A stretch of DNA of 13,368 bases from Candidatus Thorarchaeota archaeon. GTDB lineage: Archaea; Asgardarchaeota; Thorarchaeia; Thorarchaeales; Thorarchaeaceae. Positions 2,226 through 11,718 of this stretch are shown in pieces. The stretch covers positions 74,112-87,479 of the forward strand of contig JBHLRZ010000012.1 of assembly GCA_048882045.1 (NCBI GenBank). Reading direction: 5' to 3'. Numbering within the stretch: position 1 is the stretch's first letter; every line of letters begins with the position of its first letter. The notes below the pieces were generated by a model. It worked only from the letters and a program-made list of their open reading frames with translations, was not told the origin of the DNA and searched no databases. Position numbers and translations under genes: made by a program.

Positions 2226-3179
2226 ATGAACAAGTTCACTCAGCGTATAATAAGTGAAACAGGGGTCAATTTGACTGGTTTGTCTCATGAAATCTTGCAA
2301 GTGAATGTAGGAAATAGATGCAATCATCTCTGTACTCATTGTCATGTACAAGCTACACCCACGAGCAAAGACACCATGAAATGGGAGTTGATGGAGGAGA
2401 TTCTTAGGATTGCAGAGATTGTCAATCCAAAACTTGTAGATATCACAGGAGGGGCTCCTGAATTGAACCCTCACCTCCCTCGATTTCTAAGAGCATTAGT
2501 TGATAGAGGATACAAAGTTCAAGTTCGTACAAATCTTACAGTATTGCTGGATCCTGCTATTAGTGGACACATGGAGATGTTTAGAAATCTGAAGATTCGA
2601 CTTGTAGGATCTTTGCCATGTTACATAGAAGCTGATGTAGACAATGTACGGGGAGATGGCGTGTTCAAGAAGAGCATTCAAATTCTCAAGAAACTCAATG
2701 ATCTTGGGTTTGGAGTTGACCCTGAGCTCGAATTGGATCTGGTTTTCAATCCGGAAAATGCCTTCCTCCCTCCTGAACAATCTGAGCTGGAACGCACCTA
2801 CAAGGAGATATTGTCTAAAGAGTGGAGAATCCAATTCAACCGTCTTTTGACCATCACAAACATGCCGATTGGACGATTCAAACAACTGCTCATCGCGGAG
2901 AAAAAAACTTCGCAATACCAACAGCTCCTTGAAGACACTTTCAATTCCTCCACAATAGACAGTTTGATGTGTCGGCATCAGATATGCATTGGATGGGACG
3001 GGTTAATCTATGACTGCGATTTCAATTTCGCTGTCAAAATGCCCGTCAAGACTACACCAAAGTATGTACAGGAATTTAATCCGGTTTCCCACAGAACTCG
3101 CGAGATTGTTACTGGACATCACTGTTTTGGTTGTACTGCAGGACTTGGATCTTCATGCGGAGGTGCTCTTACTCAATAA
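2226..3179 (+). CDS. arsS: Arsenosugar-biosynthesis-type radical SAM protein (rSAM/Cys-rich, TIGR04167/DUF3641-like)
   Basis: Motifs LQVNVGNRCNHLCTHCHV (CxxxCxxC), DITGGAPELNP, RTNLT, SLPCY, LMCR, YDCDFN and the C-terminal HCFGCTAGLGSSCGG. The start is uncertain: ATG 2226 after CAGGAG was chosen; alternatives are ATG 2193 (overlapping the hppA TGA) or GTG 2172. Confidence 0.9.
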   Translation: MNKFTQRIISETGVNLTGLSHEILQVNVGNRCNHLCTHCHVQATPTSKDTMKWELMEEILRIAEIVNPKLVDITGGAPELNPHLPRFLRALVDRGYKVQVRTNLTVLLDPAISGHMEMFRNLKIRLVGSLPCYIEADVDNVRGDGVFKKSIQILKKLNDLGFGVDPELELDLVFNPENAFLPPEQSELERTYKEILSKEWRIQFNRLLTITNMPIGRFKQLLIAEKKTSQYQQLLEDTFNSSTIDSLMCRHQICIGWDGLIYDCDFNFAVKMPVKTTPKYVQEFNPVSHRTREIVTGHHCFGCTAGLGSSCGGALTQ

Positions 3180-3197
3180 TCACTGGAAACAGAAGGC

Positions 3198-3902
3198 ATG
3201 GAAATGAAAGACACTACCAACACATCTCGTCTAGGAATATTCATCATGATGAAGTACCCCCAAGTTGGTAGAGTCAAGGCACGACTTGCAAAATCTATTG
3301 GAGATGAGTCTGCAACTAATCTGTATCGCATGTTTATCCGAGACACGCTCACAACTGTACAAATTCTTGATATTCCATATTACATAGCAGTCTATCCTCC
3401 AGAATCGCAGAAACAGGTTGAAAAATGGCTTGGACCATCATATCATGTCTTCCAACAGCAGGGCATGGATATTGGTGAACGTCTCCAGAGTGGTTTCACC
3501 ACTATGTTCGAGAAGGGATATCAACAGGTAATTGCGCTTGCGAGTGATAGCCCTGATCTTCCCATTGAGATTCTACGAGATGCGGTATCTGCTCTTCAAA
3601 CCCATAAAGCCGTAATCGGTCCGGCTTCTGATGGAGGTTATTATTTGATTGGTTTTTCACAGGAGCCCTCTATTCTCGAGGCTTTCGAAGATATATCTTG
3701 GAGTACAGAAACTGTGTTTCGGGAAACTTTGTCAAAAATCAAATCAGTTACTCAGAATATACATATTCTACCTGAATGGATTGATATCGATACTAAGAGT
3801 GATCTCCAGAAATTCTATGCGAAACATCGTCTGCAGAACTCATACGATTCTCACACTATGAACTATCTTCGCAGTCGTCCTGAACTTCTGCTAGACAACT
3901 AG
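3198..3902 (+). CDS. TIGR04282/DUF2064-family glycosyltransferase-like protein (arsenosugar cluster associated)
   Basis: Motifs KYPQVGRVKARLA, QQGMDIGERL, ASDSPDL, IGPASDGGYYLIG, ISWST and DIDT are typical of this family. It lies 18 nt after arsS. Confidence 0.88.
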   Translation: MEMKDTTNTSRLGIFIMMKYPQVGRVKARLAKSIGDESATNLYRMFIRDTLTTVQILDIPYYIAVYPPESQKQVEKWLGPSYHVFQQQGMDIGERLQSGFTTMFEKGYQQVIALASDSPDLPIEILRDAVSALQTHKAVIGPASDGGYYLIGFSQEPSILEAFEDISWSTETVFRETLSKIKSVTQNIHILPEWIDIDTKSDLQKFYAKHRLQNSYDSHTMNYLRSRPELLLDN

Positions 3903-3914
3903 AATTTTGCCATT

Positions 3915-4679
3915 CTATGGAATGAGTCCTTCGAGACTGATGGGGAATAATACTATCCCAAGTATAATGGAAATCCAGAGAAACCAGAAACTTGTTCTTG
4001 GCCAAGGATCATTTCTTGGGTTATAACCCATCTTGAATTGCTCGTAGATAAATAGAACCGCGAGAATGATTATGTTGACATCAAAGACATAGGTAACTAG
4101 ATCAAATCTCTCAGCAGGTAGGTTGAGTAAGAAACCTAGTATCTGTCCAACACTTGTACCAATAGTGTCAAGTTGAGCTTCGAAGGGCAAACGACTGATG
4201 AAGAAGACAAGTCCCATATGTGCTAGAAGTAGCCAACCGACAACTAGTGAATGCATATTCACCCAATTCTGATTTCGTTTTGATAAGCGATGGTCAAGAA
4301 GGGGTGCGTTGTTTCTCCGTTCAATCAGCACTACGATTATCCACACCAGACCAATCACCAATGCAATCAGAGTCGTCAAAGTTGTGTTGAACAAACCACT
4401 CGCAGTAAGTGGCATCAACGAAGCTTGTAACAACGCAATGAATCTACTAGCCACTGTTTTCTGGTAGAAAGATGCTCCCAGCGTCATGAAGATCAATGCA
4501 TATGTCCAGTTATGGGCCCACCGAGGATCAGCAATATATGCCTCAATAGTGAAAGGCATCAACCAAAAGACAAGGTACATTATACCCATTAACAAGAGTC
4601 CTAGTCCGGGACCGATCTGGTATTTATTTGGCTTATCTACGCTGGCTTCTTGTGTGGTTTCCTCTGTCAAAACAGTCAT
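3915..4679 (-). CDS. Uncharacterised polytopic membrane protein (~7 TM)
   Basis: 254 aa ORF with multiple hydrophobic helices. It fills the gap convergently with the upstream glycosyltransferase. No family recognised. Confidence 0.75.
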   Translation of the reverse strand: MTVLTEETTQEASVDKPNKYQIGPGLGLLLMGIMYLVFWLMPFTIEAYIADPRWAHNWTYALIFMTLGASFYQKTVASRFIALLQASLMPLTASGLFNTTLTTLIALVIGLVWIIVVLIERRNNAPLLDHRLSKRNQNWVNMHSLVVGWLLLAHMGLVFFISRLPFEAQLDTIGTSVGQILGFLLNLPAERFDLVTYVFDVNIIILAVLFIYEQFKMGYNPRNDPWPRTSFWFLWISIILGIVLFPISLEGLIP

Positions 4680-4766
4680 CTCTTCACTTTGTGAACATAA
4701 CTGAACACTTCAGATAATGATATGTCTATCTATCCTATTTTTGAGGTGCCAATCGAATAGTATAGT

Positions 4767-5486
4767 ATGGTCGATAATAGGGAAGTTTCTCCATCGATTT
4801 CTGTGATCACTCCAATACATACTGCAAACCACAAGCTCTCGGAAATTAGGAAGGTGTTATCCTCATCAACTCATCCTACTGAACTTATTATAGTGATTAA
4901 CAATCCAGAACTAATTGGACAAATTGAATCCCAATCTACTAACGAAAAGGTAGTGATTGCCTCTCGAAAAGGTCGTGGGTTTGCATTTCTTAAGGGAATA
5001 GCTAACATCACAGGTTTCATAACATTGTTGTTGCACTCTGATACAATTCCTCCCGTTGGATGGGATAACGCAATTCTTTCGGCTTTGGAGGATCCACAAG
5101 TAGTCGGCGGAGGATTTTCCATGACCTATGGCACATCCAAACCCAACCTGGACCTAGGAATCTGGTTAATGAATCAGTGGTTTCGAATCTCAGGGGAACT
5201 CTATGGCGACCGTGCAATGTTTATTCGCTCTGATATTCTAAGACACTGTCTTTCAGTGCTTGAAGTTCCTCTTTTTGAAGATTTGCGATTGGTAAAATGT
5301 ATGCATAAACATGGTCGAGTAGTATTACTCAAGGAACGGGTTGAAACGGTTGCCAAGACTCTTAGAGAATACGGACTATTACGGTATCTTGGAAGTTTCC
5401 TACTTTGTCGATTTTGGTATGCGTTGGGTGGATCTCCCTTCCAGATCTATAATGTCTATTACTCAACTAGGACGAAGAAATTATAG
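4767..5486 (+). CDS. GT2-family glycosyltransferase, TIGR04283-like (arsenosugar cluster associated)
   Basis: Motifs ISVITP, LLLHSDT (cf. LHAD), VVGGGF, YGDRAMF (cf. YGDQ) and PLFEDL (cf. PLMED). It co-occurs with arsS and the TIGR04282-like gene. Confidence 0.8.
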   Translation: MVDNREVSPSISVITPIHTANHKLSEIRKVLSSSTHPTELIIVINNPELIGQIESQSTNEKVVIASRKGRGFAFLKGIANITGFITLLLHSDTIPPVGWDNAILSALEDPQVVGGGFSMTYGTSKPNLDLGIWLMNQWFRISGELYGDRAMFIRSDILRHCLSVLEVPLFEDLRLVKCMHKHGRVVLLKERVETVAKTLREYGLLRYLGSFLLCRFWYALGGSPFQIYNVYYSTRTKKL

Positions 5487-5517
5487 AGTATCTCAAAGAA
5501 CGACACTCACTGGACTG

Positions 5518-5751
5518 TCACTCAGTTTCTCTGGGTTCTGGGTAATCTCGTGGAGGATTCTTCATAATGAAAAACAAGGAGTATGCAAGAGAAGCGACTA
5601 CTGCAATTATAGCAATCAGAACCAAGATGACGATATCGACCATGAATACTATGAGGGCGATTATCAGTACAACATAGAGCAAGATGTTTACATAGACCAC
5701 TCGTTTCAAATAAGACTCTCCAGAGCCATAGGTCAGAAAATAGTCTCCCAA
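5518..5751 (-). CDS. Small two-TM membrane protein
   Basis: 77 aa with a TTG start directly preceded by a full archaeal SD, GGAGGTGAT (5752-5760). Long hydrophobic segment and charged C-terminal tail. Confidence 0.65.
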   Translation of the reverse strand: MGDYFLTYGSGESYLKRVVYVNILLYVVLIIALIVFMVDIVILVLIAIIAVVASLAYSLFFIMKNPPRDYPEPRETE

Positions 5752-5782
5752 ATCACCTCCCTCCTGATCAACTACTTCTTTC

Positions 5783-5887
5783 TCACCATAGACCTGGAAA
5801 GCTCAGAAGCTGACTTATCCATATCATGATAACCAGTAAAGCTATCAGGATGATGATAATTATCGACACCACCAATTTCCTACTCAT
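5783..5887 (-). CDS. 34-aa single-TM small protein (not in ORF track)
   Basis: Hand translation gives MSRKLVVSIIIIILIALLVIMIWISQLLSFPGLW*. It is preceded by GAGGAGGAAAAGGTG and sits in tandem upstream of the 77-aa membrane ORF. Confidence 0.5.
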   Translation of the reverse strand: MSRKLVVSIIIIILIALLVIMIWISQLLSFPGLW

Positions 5888-5996
5888 ACCAGTTACACCT
5901 TTTCCTCCTCAATGTACACATAGGTTGTTGTCCAATATGACCTTAAGACTTCTGCCACCCAAGTATAAGCCACAAATCCAATCAGAGGACTCGAAG

Positions 5997-6785
5997 TCAT
6001 TGAAGGATTGCTATCCGTCCAAATCTACTCACATTGAGTTGCATCTCACCTTTGAATGTAGAAACATATGCAGTTTCTACCCGAATCCGTTCATTCGTCT
6101 TGACCTGTGGGATCATCTCGTTCCAGAGTACAAGTTTCATTGATCCTGAGTCGTCAGACAATACGACATCGACAACCTGATGATACTTGTTATCCTTCTT
6201 TGAGAAGACCTCTCTGGAATCGGACATATCTTCTACCGTTCCTTCGATGATGTATTTATGATCCCCTTCAGTTACATCTGCAATCTTTGTTGCTTCAATC
6301 TTGCACTCCGAATCTAGGACTAGTTCGTATGCTCGCAAATCGAAGGTAGGAACCCATCGAAAGATTCCATATTGTCTGAAACCCAGGTTTTCATAGTATG
6401 CTTTTGTTCGAGTGTTCCAGTCAGGTGTATCCAAGGTCCATCTCTTTGCCTGTGGATACTTCTCCATTATTAACCGAAATGATTCTCTCCCAATCCCTTT
6501 TCGATGGTAATCAGGATCTATGAAGACATTGAAGATCTCATAGTGAGTATCACTGACTCTCCAGACTGTGGTTCCACCCACAATCTTCCCATCATACAAT
6601 ATCTTCAGATAATCACCAGACCTATTCTCTATCATCTGTCTCTGATGTTCAGGGGAGTCATATCCATCCGGTCCTCCAGGCCCGGGAGCTCCTACATCTA
6701 CATCAGAATCGAAAGATCGTTTTGAAATGTCTGCTAATGTTTCAGCATCATCTGGTTCTGCAAGTTCAATAGTAGTTTTACTCAT
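5997..6785 (-). CDS. GNAT N-acetyltransferase fused to a C-terminal SSB/RPA-like OB fold
   Basis: N-terminal GNAT motifs FIDPDYHRKGIG and YYENLGF. The C-terminal ~95 aa (KIADV..IEGTV..LSDDSGSMKLVLWNE..FKGEMQLNV) resemble archaeal SSB/RPA OB domains. Confidence 0.8.
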   Translation of the reverse strand: MSKTTIELAEPDDAETLADISKRSFDSDVDVGAPGPGGPDGYDSPEHQRQMIENRSGDYLKILYDGKIVGGTTVWRVSDTHYEIFNVFIDPDYHRKGIGRESFRLIMEKYPQAKRWTLDTPDWNTRTKAYYENLGFRQYGIFRWVPTFDLRAYELVLDSECKIEATKIADVTEGDHKYIIEGTVEDMSDSREVFSKKDNKYHQVVDVVLSDDSGSMKLVLWNEMIPQVKTNERIRVETAYVSTFKGEMQLNVSRFGRIAILQ

Positions 6786-6907
6786 TGTCCTAACCTCGAA
6801 ATACCATTCTAAATAGCAGTTTCAAATCTATTATAACTCAGACGCTTTGGAATTCCGAGTGATTTTGGAGGATACTCTCCTCTAATAGAAATTAAGAACT
6901 GAAATTT

Positions 6908-6933
6908 GCTCCTTCCTCATCAGAGAAAAGAGC
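6908..6933 (-). terminator. Stem-loop 10 nt downstream of the stop of rps19 fragment copy 1
   Basis: Minus-strand RNA GCUCUUUUCUC-UGAU-GAGGAAGGAGC forms an 11-bp stem with two G-U pairs. It pairs fully only on the rps19-sense strand. The terminator or stability role is inferred. Confidence 0.5.
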
Positions 6934-6943
6934 CATTCGTGTT

Positions 6944-7027
6944 TTATTTCAGTGGTACATAAGATGAAACCTTTGTGGCTCCGATACCGGGGTTTCTATG
7001 TTTAACAGGCTTGTTAGTAACTGTAAA
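6944..7027 (-). pseudogene. rps19: rps19 3'-end fragment, copy 1 (distal)
   Basis: Translates as FTVTNKPVKHRNPGIGATKVSSYVPLK*, 21/27 aa identical to the uS19 C-terminus at 10675-10758. There is no in-frame start before an upstream TAG (7043-7045). Confidence 0.9.
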
Positions 7028-7119
7028 TGAGGATGTGAAAGGCTATAAGATACACATTGACTACACTATGTTGAACTCAAAGAAAGAGCTGGGTCCCAGA
7101 CATTCCGAAGAAGAGGGGA

Positions 7120-9633
7120 ATGGGAATGACGTTAAATCAGATTCGAAAACTGATATTACAGAGAGAGTTCGATCTGGCTTTAGAAGAAATCTCTCAACTT
7201 CCAGATGCAGATAGAATAGAGGGTCAGACCTACAAGGGGATTGTTCTATCCAAACAGAACAATTTCACTGAGGCATTGTCTGTTGTTGATCAAATCCTGT
7301 CTGAGGATGATATCAAACCCTCCCATGAATTCATAGCCAGAATTGGCAAGATAATTATCTTTTTGAGAATGCGGAACTACCCAGGCATATTCGTTGAGAT
7401 GGAATCCTGTGATCAGCTCTTGGGTCGAATGGACAAGAATGAGCGTGCAAGTATCAAGAGGTGGGAGGGACACCTGCTCTCTACGAAGGGAATGTTTCAT
7501 GTTGTAAGCGGAGAGCAGGATGAAGCGGTCGAGAACTATTCCCTGAGTGCTGAGCTTTTTGACAAGGTGGGTGATAAGTATGACCAGCTCTTACAGATTA
7601 TCAACATAAGTTGGATTTACCGTGCTCAAGGACTCCTAGATCAAGCCTTAGATTACTCAATCCGACAATTGAAAATCAGTGAGGATATCGGTGAGGAAAG
7701 ATACCTTGGATGGTCAAACTTCAACATAGGGATGATTTATTTCTACAAGGCAGACCTGGTCAAGGCAGCACATCACGCAGAGATTGGAGAACAAATCTTC
7801 AGAGAGATTGGCCATCAAGAGGGTCTCACTACGATTCAAACCCTCATTGGTTCCGTATATCGAAGTACAGGGGACTTCGCCAAAGCTCTTGCTTTTTATG
7901 ATGAAGTCATGCAGAGATACAAAGAAACCTTGGGCACCGACGAACCACTACCTCACAGCTGTTGCCTTGCCTATAGAGACTCCGGCATCATATACATGTA
8001 TCAAAACAGACTCGACAGAGCAATAGACTTCTTCGAAAAGGGTTTAGAAGTACATAGAAAGAGGTGTAAGCTTCGGAATACAGTCATCGATTACGAGATA
8101 ACGGTCGCTAATCTTTACTCTGTATATGCGAAGACGATGAAGGGCGACACGGACAATCTCCAGGAACACGTCGAAGATATCCGAAGAACTGCCGAACAAT
8201 ACCCATGGCTTGATGTATTCTCTAAGACAACAGAGGCATTCATACTCCAAAACAAACCACGAGCGAAAGACAAAGCAAAAGCCCTAGAGTTGTATGAAGA
8301 GGTTCTCGATGAGAAGTTTGACTATGAATTGGAGTTGTTCATTCAAGTCCACCTTAGTGAATTATTACTTGATGAATTGAAACTCTATGGTGAAGAGTCG
8401 GTCCTTAATGAGCTCAAAGATGTCTTGTCGAGGATATCTGAAACAGCCGACAAACAGCGTTCAATCATCTCACTCATCTGGTTGTATATTCTCCAAGCAA
8501 AATTGGCAGTCATCGAAGGAGATACTGAACATGCAGAAGGTCTCCTCGACAGGGCTCTGACCATAACTGAAGAGAAGGATCTGGCTCTCTTATCCCATCA
8601 AGTCAGAGCAGAACAGCAACTTGTTTCAGATCAGTTGAAAGAGTGGAAAACACTCTTCGTACAGAACGCAACAATTCAAGAACAAATCGAGCTCCTACAG
8701 TTGAAGGAGTATATTACTGAAGCAGTTACATCAATCCTAGAGAAGAGGTTCGAATCAGCCGACAAATTCAAGCTTGTCTTCAGAAACCTCTTGAAGGATA
8801 GAACACCTGTTGAATCATGTCGTGTGGGAGTGGCTCAAATCGGTCTGAGTGACGGTAATAATCTCTTAGAGGAGTATTTCTTCGAGATTGCCCCAGGGAT
8901 ATTCCGACTTAAAGATGAGAAGGTAGAATCTGTTAGAAAGCGTGTAGTCGAACTTGTAGATGAAGCAGTAAAAAACAATGTCAACATCCTTCTGTTTCCT
9001 GAACTGAGCATTGACTTGGGACATCAATCACTCTACAAGATCTTGAGTGACCTTTCCTCGCAACACAACATGTACATCATTCCAGGTTCGTACCACGATA
9101 CTAAGAACAAGAAGAATACTAGTACTGTCTTCAGCCCCGATGGAATTCTATGGGAGCAAGAGAAACACATTCCAGCCACCATTCATTTCAAAGGAAACAG
9201 GATTGAAGAAGGGATTGAAGTTGGTGAACGTCCCCACCAAGTTGTAGTATCTGACACTGAATACGGAAGGATTGCTATTGCCATTTGTCGGGATTTTCTG
9301 GATCTTGATCTTCGTGTCGAATTAAAGAACAGCGAGCAACCAATTGATATCATACTGAATCCCGCTTTCACTCCAGTCACAGCAGATTTCAAAGCAGCTC
9401 ACTTTGATGCCCGTCGTTCCATCTATGCATACTGCTTCTTTGCAAATGTGGCTGAATTTGGTAATTCCTCCATCTACACACCAGAGAAAGAGCGGACAGA
9501 GTATGAAGTACCTGCAAAACAAGAAGGCTTGATTTTCAAGGATGTCGATCTGTTCAAACTAAGGTCAGAACGTAGGAAATGGGAGAAGAAACACACAAAG
9601 AACCGCCAATTCATTCAGAGCACACGCAGTTAG
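7120..9633 (+). CDS. TPR-repeat protein fused to a C-terminal carbon-nitrogen hydrolase (nitrilase-fold) domain
   Basis: The N-terminal ~500 aa are TPR-like helices (e.g. IGSVYRSTGDFAKALAFY). The C-terminal domain has an intact Glu-Lys-Cys triad: LLFPELS, EQEKHIP, IAICRDF. Confidence 0.85.
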   Translation: MGMTLNQIRKLILQREFDLALEEISQLPDADRIEGQTYKGIVLSKQNNFTEALSVVDQILSEDDIKPSHEFIARIGKIIIFLRMRNYPGIFVEMESCDQLLGRMDKNERASIKRWEGHLLSTKGMFHVVSGEQDEAVENYSLSAELFDKVGDKYDQLLQIINISWIYRAQGLLDQALDYSIRQLKISEDIGEERYLGWSNFNIGMIYFYKADLVKAAHHAEIGEQIFREIGHQEGLTTIQTLIGSVYRSTGDFAKALAFYDEVMQRYKETLGTDEPLPHSCCLAYRDSGIIYMYQNRLDRAIDFFEKGLEVHRKRCKLRNTVIDYEITVANLYSVYAKTMKGDTDNLQEHVEDIRRTAEQYPWLDVFSKTTEAFILQNKPRAKDKAKALELYEEVLDEKFDYELELFIQVHLSELLLDELKLYGEESVLNELKDVLSRISETADKQRSIISLIWLYILQAKLAVIEGDTEHAEGLLDRALTITEEKDLALLSHQVRAEQQLVSDQLKEWKTLFVQNATIQEQIELLQLKEYITEAVTSILEKRFESADKFKLVFRNLLKDRTPVESCRVGVAQIGLSDGNNLLEEYFFEIAPGIFRLKDEKVESVRKRVVELVDEAVKNNVNILLFPELSIDLGHQSLYKILSDLSSQHNMYIIPGSYHDTKNKKNTSTVFSPDGILWEQEKHIPATIHFKGNRIEEGIEVGERPHQVVVSDTEYGRIAIAICRDFLDLDLRVELKNSEQPIDIILNPAFTPVTADFKAAHFDARRSIYAYCFFANVAEFGNSSIYTPEKERTEYEVPAKQEGLIFKDVDLFKLRSERRKWEKKHTKNRQFIQSTRS

Positions 9634-9660
9634 TTTCCACAAAGATTAACGAAAACCAAC

Positions 9661-9680
9661 TTCTAGTAGTTAAACTAGAA
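9661..9680. repeat. Inverted repeat downstream of the TPR-nitrilase gene
   Basis: TTCTAGT-AGTTAA-ACTAGAA, 7-bp arms, 27 nt after the stop at 9633. Confidence 0.4.
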
Positions 9681-9710
9681 ACTCCTGAGTTGTTGAATAC
9701 TTGGTGAGGG

Positions 9711-9726
9711 AGGGGAAATTTCCCCT
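9711..9726 (-). terminator. 16-bp perfect palindrome 7 nt downstream of the stop of rps19 fragment copy 2
   Basis: AGGGGAAATTTCCCCT is self-complementary. The function is inferred from position. Confidence 0.5.
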
Positions 9727-9733
9727 GTGTCAA

Positions 9734-9796
9734 TTATTTCAGTGGTACATAGGCTGAAGACTTTGTGGCTCCGATTCCGGGGTTGCCATGTTTCGC
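9734..9796 (-). pseudogene. rps19: rps19 3'-end fragment, copy 2 (proximal)
   Basis: Encodes (A)KHGNPGIGATKSSAYVPLK*. The last 19 aa are identical to uS19. It matches 49/60 nt, with all 11 differences at third codon positions. Confidence 0.93.
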
Positions 9797-9820
9797 CCTT
9801 CCCATCGGGGAGCCAAGTAA

Positions 9821-10582
9821 TCACCCTGAGATGATTCCAAATTCGATATCATTGACTACCATCTGCAAGTCCGATGATATTTGAATTTCAATCGAGTTTT
9901 CTTGAAAACAACTTCTAAGGATCTGTGCGGATATTTTGAATGATATATCCATGAAAATCTCCAAGCCCTGAATACCAAGAGATTCCAATCCCTCCAAGAG
10001 ATTAGGTGAGTAATAATCATCAGTAATTCGATATCTCTCGAGGTTCACCGATTCATTATCTCCCCGTAGTACAATTTGTCCCTCAAAGATTCCAGAGTAA
10101 AAATCGAGTAGAAGTGACCATGATTCATTGGTGAATGATTCAAATTCAGTCCATTGAAAATAGAAACTGTGTGCACCTCTGCTCTCCAACAAGTCATGAA
10201 GTGCCCCTGACCCGTTACTTTGGTATTCTCCATATTGCTCTCTCCAATCAATGTGGATACCATACACATCCTTCTGAATTCCTGGGGCTTCCCAATGATA
10301 CTGTAGAGTCGTTTCATCTACCGTCGAGTTTGATTTGAAGTCTAGAATGATATCTAGTTCAATCTGTGTCGGTAGTGGAATATTGAGGACTACTACAATG
10401 GTGGTAGGGACAATAACTCCCACAATGACAACAAGAGCGACATATTTGCTAAAGAGAGCAGGGTTCTGTCTTCTGATTCTTGATCCTGCATATACGACTA
10501 GTACTAGAAGAAGTATAACTACCCCCAAACCTGAAAACGCAAATCCAAATTGTGTTTGCATAATTCCTATACAAACTCCCAC
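9821..10582 (-). CDS. Hypothetical membrane-anchored protein (N-terminal TM helices plus soluble domain), possibly 5'-truncated
   Basis: 253 aa ORF with two clear hydrophobic helices followed by an acidic polar domain. The GTG start has no obvious SD. Confidence 0.6.
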   Translation of the reverse strand: MGVCIGIMQTQFGFAFSGLGVVILLLVLVVYAGSRIRRQNPALFSKYVALVVIVGVIVPTTIVVVLNIPLPTQIELDIILDFKSNSTVDETTLQYHWEAPGIQKDVYGIHIDWREQYGEYQSNGSGALHDLLESRGAHSFYFQWTEFESFTNESWSLLLDFYSGIFEGQIVLRGDNESVNLERYRITDDYYSPNLLEGLESLGIQGLEIFMDISFKISAQILRSCFQENSIEIQISSDLQMVVNDIEFGIISG

Positions 10583-10646
10583 ACAACGATAGGATACCTA
10601 GTGTCTAGAATGATATTAGATTTGTGTAAATTCAGAAACAACTGGT

Positions 10647-10664
10647 AGGAGCACAATTGCTCCT
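10647..10664 (-). terminator. Stem-loop 10 nt downstream of the rps19 stop
   Basis: AGGAGCA-CAAT-TGCTCCT has perfect 7-bp arms and is imperfectly extendable to 10638-10673. Confidence 0.55.
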
Positions 10665-10674
10665 TACTGTTGTA

Positions 10675-11085
10675 TTATTTTAGCGGTACGTAAGCAGAAG
10701 ACTTTGTAGCACCGATACCTGGATTACCATGTTTCACAGGTTTTCCGGTATTCGAAAATTCTCCTAACACATGTCCGATCATCTGAGGGATGATCTTGAT
10801 TCGGTTGAAGTCTTTACCATTGTGAACAGCTATGGTGAGGTCCACCATCTCCGGAAGAATTACCATGTCACGACAGTGTGTGCGAACGACCACTTCCTTC
10901 CCCTTCCTTTGCTGCTTCCTGGCTGCCCTGAGCTTCATGAGCAGTTTCTTCTGACGTGGGGGTAGGCCGCGTTTGAGTGTCCTTCTCCTGCGTGTTGGGA
11001 GGAGCTCGATCAATGAATCCATGTTCATCTTAGCAAGCTCTGACAGGGGATACCCACGGTACATTGGTTCGCCTTTTTGTGACAT
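10675..11085 (-). CDS. rps19: 30S ribosomal protein uS19 (archaeal S19P / eukaryotic S15 type)
   Basis: 136 aa with YRG..L.EL, RRTLKRGL, VRTHCRDMVILPEMV, HNGKDF, MIGHVLGEFS and KHGNPGIGATKSS.YVPLK. GGTGG lies upstream of the ATG. Confidence 0.98.
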   Translation of the reverse strand: MSQKGEPMYRGYPLSELAKMNMDSLIELLPTRRRRTLKRGLPPRQKKLLMKLRAARKQQRKGKEVVVRTHCRDMVILPEMVDLTIAVHNGKDFNRIKIIPQMIGHVLGEFSNTGKPVKHGNPGIGATKSSAYVPLK

Positions 11086-11178
11086 TTTACCACCAGATGT
11101 GATATACGGAGTTGGTTGTGACCATGCACAACTGTGCTGAACCCGAGAGGTGTGAATTTAAGCATTGCGTACTGGTCA

Positions 11179-11718
11179 TCATTCTGGGCGGCGTATGACA
11201 TTTCCGTCATCGTCAATCATTCCCGCCTTTCTCATCGCCACCCTGACCCAACCCATGGTTTCCTCTAGACCGGGGTCTCTGATTAGAGCAAGCTTAGCCA
11301 GTCGAATAGCCTCTTCCCATCTCTCCAGTTCGTAGTTGATTTCTGCCATGTGAAGGATAGCCAGTGGTTGACGTTCTTCAATTTCTATTGCCTTCTCAAA
11401 GGTTACTAATGACTCCTCCAACATGCCCAACTTTCGTTGAGTCACACCCAGATTGAAAACTGGTACTGGGTCTTCTGAATCCAGTTTCGCTGCTGTATTG
11501 AGGTGGGCTAACGCTTCAATCGTCTGAGGGCTGTCCTTTGTTGGGTCCTCCTGTGCTTCCATCAGTGCGATTGCAAGAGTCACATGAGCATTCAGGTGGT
11601 CCGGATTTAGCTCGACAATCTTTTCAAGCGCCTCGATAGCACCAGCAGCATCTCCATTTGCTAGAAGTCTTGCAGCGGCCTGGTATTTTTTGTCCTTAGA
11701 ACGTCTAAATAGAGGCAT
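11179..11718 (-). CDS. Tetratricopeptide repeat protein
   Basis: 179 aa with about 4 TPR motifs (AIEALEKIVELNPDH; FNLGVTQRKLGMLEES..FEKAIEIE; MAEINYELERWEEA). Confidence 0.85.
   Translation of the reverse strand: MPLFRRSKDKKYQAAARLLANGDAAGAIEALEKIVELNPDHLNAHVTLAIALMEAQEDPTKDSPQTIEALAHLNTAAKLDSEDPVPVFNLGVTQRKLGMLEESLVTFEKAIEIEERQPLAILHMAEINYELERWEEAIRLAKLALIRDPGLEETMGWVRVAMRKAGMIDDDGNVIRRPE

Follow-up and report, generated by a model that had tools for sequence, protein, structure and literature searches.

A 13,368-nt stretch of the genome of Candidatus Thorarchaeota archaeon (GCA_048882045.1, JBHLRZ010000012.1:74,112-87,479, forward strand), termed the window, whose coordinates are used throughout, carries a stand-alone rps19 gene coding for ribosomal protein uS19, followed by two orphan rps19 3′ ends (tails) with cargo genes between them. 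Comparison with related genomes shows that such cassettes move by homologous exchange within the tails, and neither by crossover at a single att site nor by target duplication. We consider it probable that tail-replacing homing, of the kind described for mobile endonuclease open reading frames (mORFs), gave rise to the array together with homologous recombination between the tails. The source genome (3.6 Mb, 93% complete) is labelled G000, with the window on its contig C12; positions such as -86 denote nucleotides counted back from the rps19 stop codon.

rps19 and its orphan 3′ ends in the window

BLASTN searches and the match to PF00203 confirmed the arrangement described in a first-pass annotation of the window, an intact rps19 gene and, downstream of it, two partial copies that each comprise the 3′ end of the gene and stop at a TAA codon (Table 1). 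Both tails were detected with E values of about 1e-9 in the whole genome and are in direct orientation relative to rps19; no other good copy of the rps19 3′ end was found by BLASTN elsewhere in G000. A hairpin follows each of the three stop codons, and the genes for a 253-aa membrane protein, a TPR-nitrilase and a GNAT-OB protein are present, all as annotated. The copy lengths given there (63 versus 69-84 nt) had to be corrected to about 83 and 85 nt when the tails were read against the alleles of the whole family. The copies thus reach to about 9816 (-83) and about 7028 (-85), and both begin at nearly one point. The last 19 residues encoded by tail 1 are identical to those of intact rps19, with 82% identity between the nucleotide sequences, and the 5′ part of tail 1 is common to the tail closing the 253-aa-gene cassette in G004. 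Tail 2 shows 78% identity to intact rps19 over 69 nt, with three residue changes. Tail 2, its hairpin and the GNAT gene jointly correspond to the intact rps19 end at locus L199, which represents the empty site for both window cassettes; tail 2 is therefore the displaced old rps19 end. The hairpin at 9689..9733 is unlike the one preceding the TPR-nitrilase cassette in G002 and G009, indicating that hairpins are exchanged, too. The last ~95 nt of the intact gene appear to form a replaceable segment; replacement was observed in relatives. The gene itself is not part of the S10 operon and forms a head-to-head pair with a TPR gene (10675-11718), and its upstream side is conserved family-wide.

As the source is a metagenome assembly with related strains present in its samples, an assembly chimera joining the rps19 ends of several strains had to be considered. 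Another assembly is 99.97% identical to the window across 11.5 kb, and a single contig from a public run covers 5400-10378, i.e. both orphan copies, where both sources may stem from the sampling campaign of the source itself. Arrays are moreover present in about 34 genomes, and their tails decay, with 44 of 116 altering a residue that is invariant across 63 intact genes. The probability of a chimera is regarded as close to nil.

Tail arrays and allele switching across Thorarchaeia

Using the last 32 rps19 residues as query against 87 genomes of the order, orphan tails were identified in about 34 genomes from seven genera, with a maximum of eight tails behind one rps19 gene (G083); a metagenome scan contributed 57 further loci. 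The tails of any one locus are all oriented like its rps19 gene. The 96 closed units, some of which recur between loci, have a median length of 1.2 kb, and 72 of them contain one open reading frame (ORF). Cargo genes lie along the anchor strand (75) or opposite to it (63) and encode surface proteins of the beta-helix, leucine-rich repeat (LRR) and beta-propeller types, transporters, methyltransferases, and Septu/PARIS-like ATPases. When the genes between the partial copies were compared among relatives, cargo content and order varied between loci, and empty sites were found. The first-pass view of rps19 as a repeatedly used landing pad for small, mostly single-gene cassettes is in agreement with these data. 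In L031 (G015:C188:12409-12579), two tails adjoin with zero cargo between them. The single-contig genome G085 contains two complete rps19 genes in opposed orientation, 55 kb apart and 82% identical including flank (L087/L088, G085:C1:1263512 and 1318896), either a spare gene or an assembly mix. The commonest first cassette (630-aa product, k11) was considered as a source of the enzyme and turned out to encode a membrane protein without family. An exact-pattern search of viral contigs for the rps19 tail gave no match, and no skipping (excision) joints were seen in contigs of four runs, which drop rare forms such as circles.

Start points were compared for 97 non-redundant tails whose flanks are unrelated. 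The mode is at -86, with 57 tails starting at -90..-83, and not one extends past -95; simulated uniform starts would place 48% past -90. The first-pass annotation had argued from different starts of the two window copies, an argument that finds no support given starts so sharply capped near -86. Its conclusion that recombination takes place inside the repeats, and not at one att core, gained support from the allele switches. Cassettes that are 90-100% identical in different neighbourhoods are flanked by tails that switch allele at varying points (-84, -83, -68, -54, -46, -34, -13, -10, and even beyond the stop), and one tail between identical cassettes shows a three-base conversion patch (three single-nucleotide polymorphisms). 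These varying switch points identify the reshuffling as homologous exchange. Repeats with a fixed start that separate single inserts could also result from target duplication at each insertion, in the style of CRISPR adaptation, casposons or retro-elements, or from an RNA intermediate. In no case is a tail a copy of the rps19 gene resident at its locus (identity 58-89%), and such foreign alleles largely refute duplication; in addition, neither Cas1 nor a reverse transcriptase was found in G000, and cargo is present on both strands behind the hairpin. We therefore regard this route as very unlikely.

In the intact rps19 gene of G027, comparison with an empty, near-identical strain (L174) revealed 0 differences from -360 to -95 and 26 differences from -94 onward, and the displaced tail of G027 matches L174 only from -83. 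Host bases -94..-84 are thus missing from both the intact gene and the displaced tail. The pattern is that of a non-reciprocal exchange, and break repair is its presumable cause: loss of host bases fits break repair near -90 with co-conversion, and does not fit a reciprocal recombinase (PMC2988022). The rps19 genes of L198 and L219 share exactly -99..-1 and are 90% alike elsewhere, and in close pairs the divergence at fourfold sites is 0.23 upstream of about -120 and 0.42-0.46 downstream of it. A putative break zone is accordingly placed by us, on allele comparison, just upstream of the tail start (Table 1). On the cassette side of the junction, 35 full-length tails showed no conserved base, motif, inverted repeat, or dyad symmetry, and no strong symmetry was found in intact rps19 genes around the junction point. 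The rps19 genes of L206, L160 and L084 are recoded at about -99..-85, in the putative cut zone (G-E-x-L-G-S-F/L versus G-H-x-L-G-E-F); these are possibly resistant alleles.

Candidate enzymes for tail replacement

The first-pass annotation had described the cassettes as lacking an integrase, which was corroborated: G000 contains no match to the tyrosine (PF00589) or serine (PF00239) recombinase family, and no HNH was found there either. PF00589 matches were obtained in 14 of 14 control genomes versus 29 of 86 Thorarchaeia relatives, none of them on an array contig, and are absent from the long-array genomes G083, G088 and G091. Likewise, the matches listed for 90 cargo proteins, covering their 25 commonest Pfam families, include no integrase. 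In Thorarchaeia, a Xer-type recombinase is apparently no core component, or is too divergent. A site-specific recombinase acting in trans or from transient elements could nevertheless have integrated circles at a core near -86, as in integrative and conjugative, integrative and mobilizable, and cis-mobilizable elements (ICE/IME/CIME) or tycheposons, with tail recombination following later. The sharp tail start, the match of two displaced tails to the empty allele from -84/-83, the known use of streptococcal ribosomal gene ends as integrase targets (PMC5704250), and G000 tRNA tails starting at the anticodon or T loop speak for such an enzyme. Against it stand the distribution of recombinase genes given above, the ragged starts without conserved arm or symmetry, and the loss of host bases -94..-84 from both products; we judge it improbable.

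In relatives, a 670-1240-aa protein is encoded directly behind intact rps19 and convergent to it, frequently accompanied by a partner of 300 aa and by a CedD/VirD4-like ATPase. This putative nuclease and/or its partner are found at 17 distinct intact rps19 alleles, including the converted gene of G027; the nuclease is present in 9 of 61 first units versus 0 of 111 distal units, counts in which kin are not independent. In L189, L204 and L055 the putative nuclease gene is located between the new and the displaced rps19 end, and in L064 it is decayed there. The model of the C-terminal domain (pLDDT 75, pTM 0.75) has a two-motif LAGLIDADG alpha/beta saddle fold with Z scores of 14.0, 13.4 and 11.9 to homing endonucleases (Foldseek E 3e-5), the best match being the TliVMA intein endonuclease (Z 14.0, rmsd 3.4 over 188 residues). 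The motifs G-x-G-L-S-D-G and W-x-[EQ]-D-G are conserved, and both acidic catalytic positions are kept. Sequence searches with Pfam (E 0.18 only), NCBIfam and PDB missed the LAGLIDADG domain, and it was found by the fold search alone. The tree contains a 12-member clade (100/99), in which 8 of 8 members with enough flank are located at rps19; the other four end at contig edges. Other clades adjoin ahcY, rpl2, sufS, Lsm, rubredoxin and DUF35 genes. This first-position LAGLIDADG element, missed by the first-pass annotation, could explain the fixed tail start. A 460-aa FokI-cleavage-like protein (L055:4887-6266, G099) was also tried as a candidate enzyme; it is limited to a single element, the 16-kb unit behind intact rps19 in L055 that also carries the nuclease module, and was taken as cargo.

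From these data, tail-replacing homing would proceed as follows. The rps19-specific LAGLIDADG nuclease of a donor, encoded just behind its rps19 gene, would cut the recipient rps19 gene 86-95 nt before the stop. The left end of the break would be repaired from the donor, by which the rps19 end, the hairpin and the DNA behind it are copied, and the right end, from near -86, would be joined to the distal end of the copied stretch; the observed pattern is consistent with this course. The outcome would be a working hybrid rps19 gene and an old end turned into an orphan tail. As the allele switches show, tails and intact gene end then serve as 85-nt homology patches, in which the crossovers at varying points described above move, add and drop cassettes between lineages. 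Finally, the nuclease unit may be lost by recombination or decay, leaving nuclease-free stacks like that in the window.

Several observations weigh against this scheme. No member of the nuclease family was found in G000, at its given completeness, and none in the window, so that the nuclease would have acted earlier or from the donor. When the 17 nuclease-bearing alleles were compared by eye with about 70 nuclease-free ones at -100..-75, no separating pattern emerged, and self-immunity of nuclease-bearing alleles is thus unexplained. Of the rps19-linked nucleases, two do not belong to the 12-member clade; three elements are without partner gene, and the protein greatly exceeds known homing enzymes in size. 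The noncutting WhiA also matches its fold (Z 12.6), and the frequent presence of the CedD/VirD4-like ATPase fits a conflict system, too. The non-reciprocal signature comprises one clean pair and two partial ones, and could be mimicked by successive events; an instance of the first capture of a new single gene with a tail was not observed.

Other anchor genes and related systems

Orphan tails are not confined to rps19. G000 carries an ahcY tail of about 210 nt (C1:189635-192176), and ahcY tails were found in about 10 of 28 genomes of the genus. In G029 (L286, G029:C4), ahcY contains a 32-nt hairpin insertion, possibly an archaeal mini-intron, with a LAGLIDADG gene adjoining; the G000 ahcY tail starts within about 6 nt of this insertion point. 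An array of acyl-CoA dehydrogenase 3′ ends (G000 C56:11120-14518 and C43:7334-22446) comprises at least 10 tails starting at about -77..-66, and weaker copies are present on C44. Tail length depends on the anchor (about 86, 70 and 210 nt), as expected with one cutter per target; an explanation by nucleosome length or another fixed length was ruled out on the same grounds. Further rows of cargo delimited by short repeats were noticed in G000 at tRNA-Val, tRNA-Leu, another tRNA end, and unassigned anchors (Table 1). At C49:3591-6623, within the tRNA-Val array, a CedD/VirD4-like ATPase related to that of the rps19 elements is encoded beside an 845-aa acidic protein.

The many unrelated anchors in G000 are also what would be expected if homology alone were at work, with imported DNA recombining at rps19 or its tails and the LAGLIDADG module being merely a favoured cargo, e.g. 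a toxin-immunity system. Additive islands would then grow with a first capture by homology-facilitated illegitimate joints, and the varying crossover points inside the tails, the presence of weakly matching DprA-like and CedD-like genes in G000, and the missing nuclease there would all be in line with it. Such a process leaves the cap at -86 in 97 separate junctions unaccounted for, and gives no reason for anchor-specific tail lengths or nuclease clades, nor for a nuclease confined to the first position. We consider it rather unlikely.

Returning to tail-replacing homing, a wider reading is put forward tentatively, at rather less than even confidence: a genome-wide capture system, in which giant LAGLIDADG nucleases have radiated with each clade aimed at the 3′ part of another housekeeping gene, every cut would yield a spare tail, and the tails would act as integron-like exchange sites by homologous recombination. 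Its targets would be rps19, ahcY, apparently rpl2, sufS, Lsm, rubredoxin and DUF35 genes, and tRNAs. The linked CedD/VirD4-like ATPase may move DNA between cells.

The closest known likeness is found in the mORFs of Allomyces macrogynus atp6 and of Glomus atp6, atp9, cox2 and nad3. There, an element with a homing endonuclease supplies a C-terminus of foreign origin, and the original C-terminus is shifted downstream (PMC3630166). In both cases an essential gene becomes a hybrid, and the displaced end matches an empty relative; a foreign 3′ end in the host gene with the native end displaced was found for tail 2/L199 and for G027 versus L174. The Thorarchaeia case differs in its location on an archaeal chromosome, its ribosomal protein target, and the absence of the element from the window; its nuclease is convergent to the host gene, of the size given above and often accompanied by partner and ATPase, and it includes the large stacks of tails with nuclease-free cargo reshuffled between lineages. 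Free-standing phage endonucleases likewise perform intronless homing with co-conversion at homing sites (PMC2988022), by a nuclease near a conserved target and non-reciprocal conversion around the break. They replace alleles, however, and build no tail-delimited cargo stacks. Tandem accretion of ICE/IME/CIME at streptococcal rpsI, rplL, rpmG and rpmE (PMC5704250) and tycheposon islands (bioRxiv 10.1101/2020.12.28.424599) share the conserved gene 3′ end as site, the supplied replacement end, the outward displacement of older units, and integrase-free remnants between partial gene copies. In contrast to these, the rps19 arrays have no tyrosine or serine integrase or att arm, and show a ragged start, varying crossovers, and single-gene units of about 1.2 kb. 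Rows of reorderable, mostly single-gene cassettes between short repeats are also typical of integrons and clusters of attC sites lacking integron integrases (CALIN), archaeal ones included (PMC9668308). The resemblance to integrons claimed in the first-pass annotation goes no further: the rps19 tail repeats have no stable attC-like fold (z -0.9), no IntI is present, cargo lies on both strands, and joints are not at one base.

A literature search found no paper on such arrays in Thorarchaeia or archaea; the tail-start cap, the crossover map, the non-reciprocal pair, the link between nuclease clade and anchor, and the ahcY comparison are new in the present analysis. If correct, tail-replacing homing would show how the accessory genome (surface proteins, transporters, defence, arsenic metabolism) is assembled in an Asgard lineage in which few integrases can be recognised, with homing endonucleases opening fixed sites in essential genes and leftover tails becoming exchange points. 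Tail replacement of the mORF type, described in fungal mitochondria, would then occur on archaeal chromosomes as well, and there would be a reservoir of uncharacterised nucleases with long sites whose targets can be inferred. The scheme predicts that the rps19-linked nuclease cuts rps19 86-95 nt before the stop. That lineages exchange the 30 terminal codons of rps19, a universal marker, matters for phylogenies of Thorarchaeia.

Cargo genes of the window

Most close homologues of the 253-aa protein are encoded at rps19 loci, where they occupy the first position or a later one; its gene is followed by another cassette in G004, as it is in a strain of the same study. The TPR-nitrilase gene occupies the second position in G009 and lies directly behind intact rps19 in G002. 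The GC contents of the two cassette units are 39% and 43%, that of rps19 and core genes 48%.

Table 1. Features of the window and further cargo rows of the source genome
Feature	Position	Strand	Remarks
Intact stand-alone rps19 (uS19, 136 aa), anchor gene	10675..11085	-	PF00203
Putative break zone, -95 to -86, Leu-Gly-Glu codons before Phe	10760..10770	-	between allele switch of intact genes and tail start
Hairpin 3′ of intact rps19 stop	10630..10674	-	z -3.7; precedes 253-aa-gene cassette in G004 too
Cassette 1 cargo, 253-aa membrane-anchored protein without family	9821..10582	-
Orphan rps19 tail 1, about 83 nt, foreign S-P-M-G-R allele	9734..9816	-	TAA at 9734
Hairpin 3′ of tail 1	9689..9733	-	z -2.1
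Cassette 2 cargo, 837-aa TPR + carbon-nitrogen hydrolase (TPR-nitrilase)	7120..9633	+
Orphan rps19 tail 2, about 85 nt, decaying (G>R, S>V, A>S)	6944..7028	-	TAA at 6944
Hairpin 3′ of tail 2	6899..6943	-	z -4.7; common to L199, L203
GNAT-OB gene, older occupant of the site	5997..6785	-	immediately follows intact rps19 in L199
Arsenosugar-type cluster: ArsS radical SAM, DUF2064, membrane protein, glycosyltransferase	2226..5486	.	ArsS above NCBIfam cut-off
Further cargo rows, G000	C49; C2:94360-94983; C12:1954-5190; C39; C24; C10:64376-76767
Further cargo rows, G000 (continued)	C18; C1:252683-256818; C13; C20; C5; C14

No remnant rps19 tail was found around the arsenosugar-type cluster in the window. 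The cluster forms a tail-bounded cassette in G017 (L066) and is tail-less in the window and in L191, indicating that tails can be lost. At the left edge of the window, a perfect 77-nt direct repeat (G000 C12:73935-74188) overlaps the start of a pyrophosphatase gene.

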